64,000 bases of DNA from positions 137,419 through 201,418 of the forward strand of contig VYFQ01000024.1 in assembly GCA_009842325.1 (NCBI GenBank), written 5' to 3'. The notes beneath the pieces are model-generated. The model worked only from the letters and a program-made list of their open reading frames with translations. It was not told where the DNA came from and did not search any database. Positions 48,786 to 54,984 of the stretch are shown piece by piece (position 1 is the stretch's first letter; each line of letters starts with the position of its first letter). Position numbers and translations under genes: made by a program. This DNA is from Acidimicrobiaceae bacterium (GTDB lineage: Bacteria > Actinomycetota > Acidimicrobiia > Acidimicrobiales > Aldehydirespiratoraceae).

Positions 48786-49313
48786 TCAGCCGAGCTCGTT
48801 GCCGCTCGTGGCTGATGCGTCGGGAGCGCTCGGGCCGGTGAGCCGGCCCGCCAAGGCATCGTCCACCGCCGCGGTGGCGTTGAGGTGGGCTATCAGCGCG
48901 GTCAACTTCCGGTCGATCTCCGCGACCGCCGCTTCGAGCTTGTCGAATCGAGCCTCCACCCTGCGCTCGAACTCGATGAACCTGGCCTCAAGGCGGTCGA
49001 CCCTGACCTCAAGTCGGTCGACCTTGGCCTCGAGTTGGTCGACCTTGGCCTCGAGTCGGTCGATGCGGATATTGATGTCATCGATGCGGATGTGGGGGCT
49101 GACTATCGCTGCGGTCAGCAGGGCCACGATGACGAGGCCGAAGAAGCTCAGCAGCGGATTCTCCGCAACCTGAGCCCGCAGGCTCGGCCTGACCACGGTC
49201 GCCGCGCCGGCCCGCGTTTGCGCCTGGTCGGTCGCTGCCTCAGGTGCGATGTCAGACGGGTTGACCATGGGGGATGCCGCTTCGGCGGCGGGAATGGGAG
49301 CGGATGTCGTCAT
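48786..49313 (-). CDS. membrane-anchored coiled-coil protein (unknown function)
   Basis: 175 aa. TM segment LLSFFGLVIVALLTAAIV, followed by heptads IDRLEAK VDQLEAK VDRLEVR VDRLEAR FIEFERR VEARFDK LEAAVAE IDRKLTA. Confidence 0.6.
   Translation of the reverse strand: MTTSAPIPAAEAASPMVNPSDIAPEAATDQAQTRAGAATVVRPSLRAQVAENPLLSFFGLVIVALLTAAIVSPHIRIDDINIRIDRLEAKVDQLEAKVDRLEVRVDRLEARFIEFERRVEARFDKLEAAVAEIDRKLTALIAHLNATAAVDDALAGRLTGPSAPDASATSGNELG
48986..49069 (-). repeat. in-frame 21-nt tandem repeat (4 units) encoding heptads
   Basis: Plus-strand units start at 48986, 49007, 49028 and 49049: cctcaaggcggtcgaccctga / cctcaagtcggtcgaccttgg / cctcgagttggtcgaccttgg / cctcgagtcggtcgatgcgga. Confidence 0.85.
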
Positions 49314-49408
49314 CAGAGCCTCGCCTCAGGGCCGGCGGCGGTACGGGCAACAGTGCGGCTGGAAGGATCGGCTGCCGACAAAGCCCGGCAACAAGGCTCG
49401 AACTGGAG

Positions 49409-49435
49409 ATTATACGACAATCAATGTCATGTCAA
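49409..49435 (-). promoter_or_regulatory. consensus-like sigma-70 promoter pointing at the coiled-coil gene
   Basis: Minus strand reads TTGACA (49435..49430)-15 nt-TATAAT (49414..49409), both perfect hexamers in an AT-rich patch. The 15-nt spacer is short. It lies about 95 nt upstream of the 49313 start. Confidence 0.4.
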
Positions 49436-53500: not shown

Positions 53501-53548
53501 ATACGCGACTGGTTCGACTACATCGCTCGACGACCTGCGTCTGACTGA
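50504..53548 (+). CDS. mcrB: McrB-like AAA+ GTPase (type IV restriction motor subunit), 1014 aa, atypical multi-domain N-terminus
   Basis: ATG at 50504 inside ORF 50288..53548. Walker A [33 protein letters not shown], Walker B [25 protein letters not shown], and McrB signature [25 protein letters not shown]. Confidence 0.85.
   Translation: [1014 protein letters not shown]
51137..52380 (+). repeat. tandem duplication of a ~205-aa module inside the mcrB-like gene (51137..51757 and 51761..~52380)
   Basis: [38 protein letters not shown] versus [57 protein letters not shown] versus [19 protein letters not shown]. The nucleotide blocks 51198..51250 and 51822..51874 are near-identical. Confidence 0.85.
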
Positions 53549-54984
53549 TGTCTTTGACGGACACGCTGACATCCCGCTCGACGGAGGGAGCGGACGTGGA
53601 GACCGCCGCGCCAACGGTTGGCGACCGCGACACGGACGAACACTCACAGCAGTCAGTCGCAAGTACCCCTCTCACGTTGATCCTGCGCGAGTACGGCCGC
53701 GCCGTTCTGCCGATGACCGACGAGCAGGCTGCCGCGCTGAACCGGGTGGGCACGGGACAATACCTGTCGGTCGAGCCGGGCGAGTACTCGGGGCACTGGC
53801 AAGTGTCTGCTCACAACTACGTCGGGTCGATCAATGTGGCGGGGTTGCAGGTGTTGGTGCGGCCCAAGATCCCTTTGCGCAACCTGTTCCTGCTGCTCGA
53901 AGTGGGACTGCGGGAGCGGGACTGGCATGACGAGGCCGTGCGCTTCGAGACGACTGGTGACCTGCTGCCTGCCCTCGTGTCGTTCTTCGCCCGCACCACC
54001 GAGACCACCGTCGCCCGCGGGCTGTACCACTCCTACCGAGAGCAGCATGACCGGCTGGTCGCTCTGCGAGGACGCGTCGACATCACCCGGCAGCTCGCCC
54101 AGCCCGGCGTCGTCATACCTACGGCCTGCAGGTTCACAGAGTTCACCGCCGACCTGATCGAGAACTCGTACCTGAAGGCAGCCGTGTCGCGGTCGCTGCG
54201 GGTCGCCGGGGTGCAGCCCATCGACCGTCGCAGGCTCATGCAGCACCTCGTCACGCTCGAAGACGTTGGCGACGTAAGGCATCATCACGCCGACCACGAC
54301 CGGGTCATCTTCAGCCGGCTCAACGAGCACTACCGGCCCGCGCTGCGGCTGGCTCGGCTCGTGCTGGCCAATCTGACGCTGCAAGACGTCCTCGGCGAGA
54401 CGCAGGCCTCGTCGTTCATGCTGGACATGAACGAACTCTTCGAGCGCTTCGTCACCGAGCGCTTGCGGCGGGCGCTACGGGGCCGCCTCGACGTCAAGGG
54501 CCAGCACCAGGACCGGCTCGACGAGGAGCGCTACGTCACCATCAAGCCCGACTTGCTGTTCAGTGCCAACGGCGCACCGAGGCTCGTGGCCGACATCAAG
54601 TACAAGCTCACCGACGACACGGCCGCTGGCCGCAACGCCGACTACTACCAGTTGCTGGCCTACACCACCGCGCTCGACCTGCCGGAGGGCGTCCTCATCT
54701 ACTGCCTCGACGCCAACCGTGCCGACGACTCCGACAGTGACGGAGCGTCGGTCACGACCTCTCGGCCTGCGAGTTCCATGCCCGCTGAAGGCACACCCGA
54801 CGACAGCCTTCCAGGCCTGCGGTCGATACGGGTCCGCAACGTCGGGAAGGTACTCCACACCTACGCGCTGGACATGTCCGGCACCGCCGAAGATGTCGCC
54901 CGGAACCTGGACAGACTCGCCGACTGGATCGAGGGCCGGTCCGCAGCGACTCTGGGAGTGGGCGAACCTGCCCCCGGGAACTAG
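53548..54984 (+). CDS. mcrC: McrC-like PD-(D/E)xK nuclease subunit
   Basis: The ATG overlaps the mcrB-like stop (TGATG). YVGSINVAGLQVLVRPKIP, MNELFERFV, and nuclease core VTIKPDLLF...LVADIKYK...YYQLLAYT. Confidence 0.8.
   Translation: MSLTDTLTSRSTEGADVETAAPTVGDRDTDEHSQQSVASTPLTLILREYGRAVLPMTDEQAAALNRVGTGQYLSVEPGEYSGHWQVSAHNYVGSINVAGLQVLVRPKIPLRNLFLLLEVGLRERDWHDEAVRFETTGDLLPALVSFFARTTETTVARGLYHSYREQHDRLVALRGRVDITRQLAQPGVVIPTACRFTEFTADLIENSYLKAAVSRSLRVAGVQPIDRRRLMQHLVTLEDVGDVRHHHADHDRVIFSRLNEHYRPALRLARLVLANLTLQDVLGETQASSFMLDMNELFERFVTERLRRALRGRLDVKGQHQDRLDEERYVTIKPDLLFSANGAPRLVADIKYKLTDDTAAGRNADYYQLLAYTTALDLPEGVLIYCLDANRADDSDSDGASVTTSRPASSMPAEGTPDDSLPGLRSIRVRNVGKVLHTYALDMSGTAEDVARNLDRLADWIEGRSAATLGVGEPAPGN

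Follow-up and report, generated by a model that had tools for sequence, protein, structure and literature searches.

Organization and base composition of the locus

The DNA under study, a window of 64,000 nucleotides, comes from a sponge-associated actinobacterium (Ca. Aldehydirespirator / Acidimicrobiaceae). Four genes follow each other on its forward strand: small1 (49502..49948, 148 aa, pI 4.3), small2 (49995..50480, 161 aa, two C-terminal hydrophobic segments), the McrB-like gene mcrB (50504..53548, 1014 aa) and the McrC-like gene mcrC (53548..54984, 478 aa). A divergent gene upstream (48786..49313, reverse strand, 175 aa) encodes a membrane-anchored coiled-coil protein. A preliminary description of the DNA had listed these five open reading frames, and all of them were found where it placed them. 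The gaps in the small1-small2-mcrB series are 46 nt and 23 nt, as it stated. The proposed coupling of mcrB and mcrC is seen as a 1-base stop/start overlap (TGATG at 53546-53550), and the 3′ end of mcrC runs into the convergent SnoaL-like gene, sharing 54981..54984 with it, again in accordance with the description. Scanning 48.6-55.7 kb for promoters and terminators gave results no better than those for shuffled sequence, with no terminator predicted. Given the short gaps and the lack of a predicted terminator, co-transcription of small1, small2 and mcrBC is likely.

The GC content from small2 to mcrC is 0.635, versus 0.684 for the whole window, a value that ranks among the lowest 1% for windows of 5.2 kb. 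The block had been described as AT-rich on the basis of counts of 31/60 G+C inside it and 46/60 in gatB, both exact on recount. The dip is real; however, it is limited to mcrB and does not cover the whole block. GC3 is 0.735 in mcrB, whereas small1, small2 and the coiled-coil gene (~0.82) and mcrC (0.854) are like the neighbouring genes (0.83-0.90). Another low-GC stretch is located at ~11-15 kb of the window.

Motor and N-terminal modules of McrB

The AAA+ GTPase core and lid of McrB comprise residues 630-895 (52391..53188, forward strand, as for all modules of mcrB). This region matches the E. coli McrB structure 6hz4 (E=1.6e-43), and residues 651-802 within it match Pfam AAA_5 (E=7.8e-24). 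The NCBIfam McrB model is matched with E=1.6e-41 at 142.5 bits, under the model's equivalog cutoff of 637 bits, as is expected of a distant homologue. The motor has Walker A (GPPGTGKT at 655), Walker B (IIDEINR at 734) and RRRF (at 799) motifs. The signature MNTADRS at 784 contains N-T-A-D and satisfies NxxD, the motif that defines the GTPase signature of McrB (PMC11090510).

McrB indeed has the long N-terminal extension noted earlier. However, its ~650 aa, then left unassigned, resolve into a predicted YTH/EVE-like reader and two DUF8426 modules, and its length is typical of the subfamily. The predicted PUA-like (YTH/EVE-like) domain occupies residues ~25-200 (50576..51103). Residues 28-206 match positions 3-173 of the 346 positions of the PADLOC profile PDC-S02 (E=1.3e-32), while no Pfam match was obtained for this region. 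In the AF2 model of McrB (mean pLDDT 80) the predicted fold resembles YTH domains with a Foldseek probability of 1.00, but with E of only 8e-3 and target TM of ~0.5. It also matches the modification-dependent endonuclease VcaM4I and the EVE protein 1zce. We suggest from this modelled fold that the domain is a candidate reader, which would recognise a modified base in DNA.

The reader is followed by two DUF8426 modules, all-helical in the AF2 model: copy 1 at residues ~211-412 (51134..51739) and copy 2 at residues ~419-620 (51758..52363). The duplication is evident from the 49% identity of the copies (E=2e-56), and homologues of McrB carry precomputed PF28530 DUF8426 together with PF28529 McrB_lid. 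A search of PDB sequences with the DUF8426 profile gave nothing below E=0.18, and Foldseek returned only weak OGG1/HhH-GPD-like matches (probability <=0.25). DUF8426 may touch DNA directly via the helix-hairpin-helix-like element 'GLGESV..KLLAI'; since the Foldseek matches are weak, this idea stays speculation.

The variable C-terminal tail spans residues 901-1014 (53204..53545). Among the clade loci this 114-aa segment is found only in L001, L006, L011 and L016, and its GC3 of 0.614 is the lowest within mcrB. A match of the tail to Phage_int_SAM_1 was sub-threshold (E=0.023) and is not relied on.

McrC and the proposed mechanism

McrC matches PF10117 McrBC over residues 87-385 (E=3.9e-52) and NCBIfam McrC (E=1.7e-24). 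A PD...D-x-K motif is seen by eye in the sequence, with KPDL at 333 and DIKYK at 349. No coiled-coil family matches were obtained for either McrB or McrC. The earlier assignment of the locus to McrBC-type, modification-dependent (type IV) modules is borne out by AAA_5, 6hz4, NxxD and PF10117. Judging by their sequences, mcrB and mcrC are intact and form a translationally coupled pair of the type IV restriction class.

By analogy with the E. coli and T. gammatolerans McrBC, we suggest the following course of restriction. McrB hexamers would bind modified foreign DNA through their reader domains. McrC, supplying the N-terminal DUF2357 activator domain and the PD-(D/E)xK nuclease, would insert into the McrB ring and stimulate GTP hydrolysis. 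Translocation would then bring the complexes together, and the DNA would be cleaved by McrC.

Comparison with known systems

The locus shares with E. coli K-12 McrBC (EcoKMcrBC), the prototype type IV system, the AAA+ core, Walker A/B, NxxD, PF10117 and PD-D/ExK, as well as the order of mcrB before mcrC in one operon. Unlike in EcoKMcrBC, where the reader is ADAM/DUF3578, the reader here is predicted to be PUA-like (YTH/EVE-like), two DUF8426 modules (~400 aa) are placed between the reader and the motor, and the 114-aa C-terminal tail is additional. The McrBC of Thermococcus gammatolerans is archaeal and distant; its McrC is the closest solved relative of the window McrC (6ut5_G, E=4.4e-15). 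TgMcrB carries a YTH-like N-terminal reader, of the same fold class as that predicted here. However, no DUF8426 is detected in it, and its match to the window McrB covers the AAA+ core only.

With the DUF8426-type McrB subfamily the locus has in common a variable reader, DUF8426, AAA+ and lid, followed directly by McrC downstream; this copy differs by its doubled DUF8426 and its particular reader. The subfamily is represented by at least 410 metagenome stretches, 80 of which were examined, and in essentially all of these related loci that extend far enough mcrC lies directly 3′ of mcrB. McrB proteins of this subfamily usually have N-terminal extensions of ~430-890 aa (median ~620 aa in 67 complete outgroup genes), and most of the outgroup loci have a single DUF8426-like module directly before AAA+. 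DUF8426, a hallmark of the subfamily, is a widespread helical module directly before the McrB motor, without a sequence relative among solved structures.

Three other named systems were considered. The single-gene PADLOC profile PDC-S02, which the accessible part of the literature lists as a named candidate only, is matched here by the reader half alone; its C-terminal half is absent and a full-length match fails, hence the locus is not identified as PDC-S02. LlaI/BsuMI and CoCoNuTs resemble the locus in having an McrB-like NTPase and an McrC-like nuclease as the core. The three-gene LlaI/BsuMI systems, according to the accessible part of the source (bioRxiv 10.64898/2026.08.31.748284), encode a separate DNA-binding subunit. 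The locus is not of this type, since its predicted reader is part of McrB itself and no DNA-binding family was detected for small1 or small2. CoCoNuTs are characterised by the motif NxD and by McrB and McrC homologues that are rich in coiled coils (PMC11090510); they are ruled out because the motif here is NxxD and the sole coiled coil belongs to the unlinked divergent gene.

Conservation, deletion and module shuffling in the clade

Synteny at the locus extends over 25 genomes or contigs, all from one clade (Ca. Aldehydirespirator / Acidimicrobiaceae). McrBC is found at the same site in ~20 related sponge-associated genomes, flanked by LLM/tauD on one side and by SnoaL/DLH/PPK2 on the other. 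Within the clade the AAA+ domain of McrB shows 80-89% identity, and the N-terminal modules vary: the readers are YTH/EVE-like in 0-2 copies, Mrr_N or none, and DUF8426 occurs in 1-2 copies.

McrBC is lost in L004, L007, L021 and L023, L022 has an internal deletion, and mcrB is possibly split in L003/L020 and in L019. A blastn comparison of the window with its closest relative, L007 (~94% nt identity), shows that a 5,064-bp interval (49907..54970) has been cleanly deleted there, with the breakpoints at 49906|54971 and GCCC microhomology at the junction. Gone are small2, mcrB, almost the whole of mcrC and the 14 final codons of small1. L007 keeps the coiled-coil gene and a shortened small1; the C-terminus of small1 that is cut off in L007 is conserved in other relatives.

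These data bear on whether the block, earlier described as a lower-GC island, was recently acquired, its four or five genes having come in together as a cassette by horizontal transfer. The GC dip, the presence/absence polymorphism with respect to L007 and the strong differences in McrB reader modules between otherwise syntenic genomes would fit an import, and yet we find it decidedly improbable. Recent insertion is rejected because synteny at this site holds throughout the clade and because L007 differs by a deletion, which truncates small1. Moreover, only mcrB is compositionally atypical, the window holds neither a tRNA nor an integrase, as was already remarked in the preliminary description, and no relatives of small1 or small2 were found on viral contigs. 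A plasmid collection gave matches to the AAA+ domain only, at <=51% identity and annotated as 'AAA family ATPase' or 'McrC family protein', which are uninformative on origin. Hence, from its presence at one syntenic site in ~20 related genomes, the McrBC module appears to be an ancestral feature prone to deletion and not a new insertion.

The losses, the internal deletion and the possible splits in relatives could also mean that the window holds a decaying or inactive McrBC remnant. Nevertheless, both of its ORFs are full length, the GTPase and nuclease motifs are intact when checked by eye, and the AAA+ domain is conserved in the clade to the degree given above. We thus regard the remnant as highly improbable. 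The locus indicates that the specificity modules of McrB shuffle naturally on a conserved motor-nuclease core at one syntenic position, with repeated loss of the system. This makes it a clean small data set on the evolution of type IV specificity.

Relation of the neighbouring genes to McrBC

The block had been put forward as an undescribed system of four or five components. We suggest instead that it is probably a canonical two-gene McrBC type IV restriction system, and that the three genes beside it (small1, small2 and the coiled-coil gene) are neighbours peculiar to the clade rather than subunits. The genome comparison indicates that these neighbours sit at a variable, deletion-prone chromosomal site conserved in the clade.

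The product of small2, which has 28 homologues, is basic and carries two TM segments at its C-terminus. The gene accompanies McrBC in only 5 of the 20 McrBC-bearing clade loci, and in L010 it is flanked by two small1 paralogues and does not adjoin mcrB. The coiled-coil gene is present in the McrBC-less L007 and missing from five McrBC-bearing loci (L003, L013, L015, L019 and L024). Searches of Pfam, NCBIfam and PADLOC gave generic coiled-coil matches only for this gene and no match for small1 or small2.

Several features of small1 would fit an accessory component. A gene of its family lies directly upstream of McrBC on the same strand in 20/20 McrBC-bearing clade loci, although all 25 loci represent one syntenic site, where linkage and common descent are inseparable. 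The family occurs as short and long paralogues, and it is doubled beside mcrB in L010, L012, L013 and L017. Together with the short intergenic gaps, the lack of a predicted terminator, the acidic pI and purifying selection on small1, this is what would be expected of a clade-specific multi-gene variant, in which small1, perhaps with small2, modulates McrBC from one operon. In such a variant small1 might guard against self-cleavage by inhibiting McrBC as an acidic protein or by mimicking DNA, or it might be a specificity factor or a membrane-linked sensor, and the locus would be a lineage-restricted, accessory-assisted type IV system.

However, small1 is also retained where McrBC is not. Among the 25 small1-bearing loci McrBC is present in 20, wholly absent in 4 and reduced to a remnant in 1; small1 persists without McrBC in L004/L005, L007 (truncated copy), L021 and L023. 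Its dN/dS is 0.24-0.43 with pairs involving McrBC-less genomes included; the constraint is similar in the four McrBC-less genomes. The similarities of small1 and of the McrB N-terminal domain are uncoupled: 51% and 75%, respectively, for L001, but 85% and 39% for L006.

Outside the clade, none of the 79 related outgroup McrBC loci (AAA+ identity 44-81%) carries small1, small2 or the coiled-coil gene as searched by tblastn at E<=1e-3, which would miss functional analogues that are strongly diverged or not homologous. In the 47 of these 79 loci with >=1.5 kb of upstream sequence, no small gene was seen to recur upstream. The three genes are thus neither conserved with McrBC across genomes nor absent when McrBC is absent, and a modulator role of small1 in a multi-gene variant is unlikely. 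The presumed new multi-gene defence system resolves into what is probably a standard McrBC pair with unrelated neighbours, which is mainly a negative result.

A minor point of note is the orphan small1 family itself, which is restricted to Ca. Aldehydirespirator-like Acidimicrobiaceae. It has 172 homologues with 54-93% identity, and a profile search of 1.84 billion representative proteins returned only 24 clusters and no remote family; being so limited, small1 is not a general McrBC component. No DNA-binding family was detected for small1 or small2, and no DNA-binding fold for small1. It is uncertain where small1 starts: with the in-frame ATG at 49424 the protein would have 174 aa, and relatives also have the extra peptide (MSCQHHEPSP...) in their small1 ORFs. 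The AF2 model of small1 has a confidently predicted fold (pLDDT 79), for which Foldseek gave no usable match in the PDB (best E 0.55).

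Gene layout and composition of the block

We suggest, as the best-supported reading, that the block is a standard two-gene McrBC system, with its three other genes as clade-specific neighbours at a site that varies and is prone to deletion. All five ORFs of the preliminary description were recovered at its coordinates, together with its intergenic gaps of 46 and 23 nt. The coiled-coil gene (48786..49313, minus strand) encodes 175 aa, in which heptad-like repeats come after a single hydrophobic segment. On the plus strand follow small1 (49502..49948), encoding an acidic protein of 148 aa (pI 4.3); small2 (49995..50480), encoding a basic protein of 161 aa with two hydrophobic segments at the C-terminus; the McrB-like gene mcrB (50504..53548, 1014 aa); and the McrC-like gene mcrC (53548..54984, 478 aa). 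The mcrC start overlaps the mcrB stop by one base, and a convergent SnoaL-like gene overlaps the end of mcrC. Where small1 starts is uncertain: translated from an ATG in frame at 49424, the protein would be 174 aa long, and relatives also have the additional peptide in their small1 ORFs. Short tandem peptide repeats (RIDRLEAKVDQLEAKVDRLEVRVDRLEARF; 48990..49070, residues ~75-112) occur in the coiled-coil gene; they vary in number and sequence among relatives and are expanded in the related locus L001 (5993..6574).

The block had been described as a lower-GC island, and both GC counts of that description were exact on recount. The dip is real, with a GC of 0.635 from small2 to mcrC versus 0.684 for the window, among the lowest 1% of 5.2-kb windows; gene by gene, however, only mcrB is atypical (GC3 0.735). 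GC3 is ~0.82 in small1, small2 and the coiled-coil gene and 0.854 in mcrC, similar to the neighbours. No tRNA is found within the window.

The McrBC core and the modules of McrB

Judged by its sequence, the core is a genuine McrBC, and the earlier McrBC-type assignment is borne out by Pfam, NCBIfam and solved-structure matches as well as by intact motifs. McrB matches Pfam AAA_5 (E=7.8e-24) and NCBIfam McrB (E=1.6e-41); over residues 630-895 it also aligns with the solved motor of E. coli McrB (E=1.6e-43). Walker A, Walker B, the signature MNTADRS (the NxxD motif of McrB defined in PMC11090510) and RRRF are all intact. McrC matches PF10117 (E=3.9e-52) and the McrC of T. gammatolerans (E=4.4e-15), and keeps the PD...D-x-K motif.

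The N-terminal 650 aa of McrB, formerly called unassigned, resolve into a predicted reader and two DUF8426 modules, with a length typical of the subfamily. For residues 28-206 there is a match to PDC-S02, a PADLOC candidate, in its N-terminal half (E=1.3e-32). The AlphaFold2 model of residues 1-640 (mean pLDDT 80) has an alpha/beta domain at ~25-200. Among PDB structures it comes closest to YTH domains (prob 1.00, E 8e-3, target TM ~0.5), to VcaM4I, a modification-dependent endonuclease, and to 1zce, an EVE protein. On this model, residues ~25-200 are a PUA-like predicted modified-base reader, a type commonly fused to McrB (PMC11090510). Residues ~211-412 and 419-620 are two copies of one all-helical module (49% identical, E=2e-56), named DUF8426 where Pfam annotation is precomputed for homologues; it precedes the AAA+ core and McrB_lid. 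DUF8426 has no relative among solved structures by sequence, and its fold matches are weak and OGG1-like. Among 67 complete outgroup genes of the subfamily, from related McrBC loci outside the clade, the N-terminal extension has a median of ~620 aa and reaches ~1,100 aa, thus the length of the window McrB is normal. The C-terminal tail (114 aa, 53204..53545) is variable, common only to the window, L001, L006, L011 and L016, and has a sub-threshold Phage_int_SAM_1 match (E=0.023). Where the window has this tail, locus L002 has a separate 104-aa ORF (11165..11479) between the McrB lid and mcrC.

Motifs and architecture can be seen directly in the window; the mechanism is drawn by analogy from McrBC of E. 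coli and T. gammatolerans. Accordingly, the McrB reader domains would recognise a modified base, McrC would engage the McrB hexamer with resulting GTP hydrolysis, and translocation would then be followed by cleavage by McrC.

The locus within the clade

Homologues of McrB, small1 and small2 come nearly all from Acidimicrobiaceae / Ca. Aldehydirespirator MAGs, many of them from sponge metagenomes. We compared 24 further distinct small1-bearing loci with the window, mapping all window proteins by tblastn. The site is syntenic in all of them, with the layout LLM monooxygenase, (peptidase, tauD), coiled-coil gene (minus), small1 (plus), variable genes, mcrB, mcrC, SnoaL (minus) and, further on, DLH and PPK2. 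McrBC is present in 20 of the 25 loci, window included; L022 has a fused remnant only, and McrBC is absent with small1 retained in four (L004/L005, L007, L021 and L023).

The closest relative, L007 (~94% nucleotide identity, flanking proteins 97-98%), is without exactly 49907..54970 of the window (5,064 bp), with the junction inside a GCCC microhomology. Its small1 has lost the last 14 codons; since these are conserved elsewhere, the difference arose by deletion in L007 rather than by insertion in the window.

Decay of McrBC takes other forms as well. An internal deletion in L022 (10704..11797) fuses the N-terminal part of McrB to McrC residues 345-469, the reader domain is interrupted in L019 (8203..11191), and the DUF8426 and AAA+ parts are called as separate ORFs in L003 (9674..11573) / L020.

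The site acts like a hotspot of variable genes, which lie between small1/mcrC and DLH at L002 13778..15103, L003 13671..16506 and L004 10420..15421; relatives have DUF222-HNH endonuclease, amidase, IS110-family transposase and retropepsin-like genes there too. A 151-aa ORF of L003 (7780..8235) reads by eye as PIN (VapC)-like.

Linkage of the companion genes to McrBC

The suggestion of a 4- or 5-component system is not upheld: small1 is kept in four McrBC-less loci, small2 occurs in 5 of the 20 McrBC-bearing ones (the window, L001, L002, L010 and L011), and neither gives a tblastn match (E<=1e-3) in the 79 outgroup loci. In L010 small2 sits between two small1 paralogues and does not adjoin mcrB. 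The coiled-coil gene is present in McrBC-less L007 and absent from McrBC-bearing L003, L013, L015, L019 and L024; a different 152-aa gene replaces it in L003/L004, next to which L003 has the PIN-like ORF. Similarity is mosaic: L001 is closest in both the McrB reader (75%) and small2 (86%), but its small1 is only 51% identical, and L006 has small1 at 85% but a reader at 39%.

Wherever a clade locus has McrBC, small1 lies immediately upstream of mcrB and co-oriented with it, as would be expected of a clade-specific accessory role. Its dN/dS is 0.24-0.43 in all pairs, those involving McrBC-less genomes among them, and we consider such a role improbable.

Scanning metagenomes with the McrB motor gave at least 410 loci, 80 of which were examined (AAA+ identity 44-82%). 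Only L028 among them has small1, and its DLH/PPK2 synteny places this locus within the clade; small1, small2 and the coiled-coil gene were found in 0 of the other 79 (tblastn E<=1e-3). In these outgroup loci mcrC is directly downstream of mcrB almost everywhere. ORF clustering of the 47 with >=1.5 kb upstream of mcrB gave no recurrent small upstream gene. The sole recurrent upstream neighbour, in five outgroup loci (L034, L036, L086, L092 and L096), encodes a large protein (~630 aa in L092) with the motif '...FLHWHLTFPQIF...', which we read as a putative PglX/type IIG-like DNA methyltransferase; this reading would agree with the link between McrBC and methyltransferases noted in PMC11090510.

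The small1 family

Among 1.84 billion representative proteins, profile searching returned only 24 small1 clusters, and neither small1 nor small2 has relatives on viral contigs. The AF2 model of small1 (pLDDT 79, pTM 0.74) has no fold match in PDB. Paralogues are short (~150 aa) or long (~205-220 aa, extended by ~65 aa at the N-terminus), and both forms stand in tandem upstream of mcrB in several genomes; paralogue sites are L010 11145..11771, L012 10466..11122, L013 10637..11029, L017 11978..12592 and L021 10636..11034. L002 and L011 retain fragments of the long form.

Shuffling of the reader module

The AAA+ core is 80-89% identical across clade loci; the reader is mostly 32-48% identical, 75% in L001. 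Comparison of window 50576..52363 with L001-L028 finds the YTH/EVE-like reader absent from L003/L020, L015 and L016, double in L011 and otherwise mostly single. Many relatives carry an extra Mrr_N domain in McrB, and DUF8426 is in one or two copies depending on the relative. This N-terminal variation suggests that cassettes have been exchanged and that specificity is under diversifying selection. Such shuffling of specificity modules over a conserved motor-nuclease core, at one syntenic locus, is worth recording, as are the uncharacterised DUF8426 module and the orphan small1 family.

A second lower-GC stretch

Elsewhere in the window, 11271..14206 has a GC of 0.61-0.64. ORFs of 402 aa (11271..12479, plus) and 345 aa (13169..14206, minus) have no Pfam or PADLOC match; one of 167 aa (12922..13425, minus) matches the CcdA antitoxin (E=6.5e-7). 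The stretch, with a ferritin-like gene and ilvC just downstream (14613..16119), may be another variable islet.
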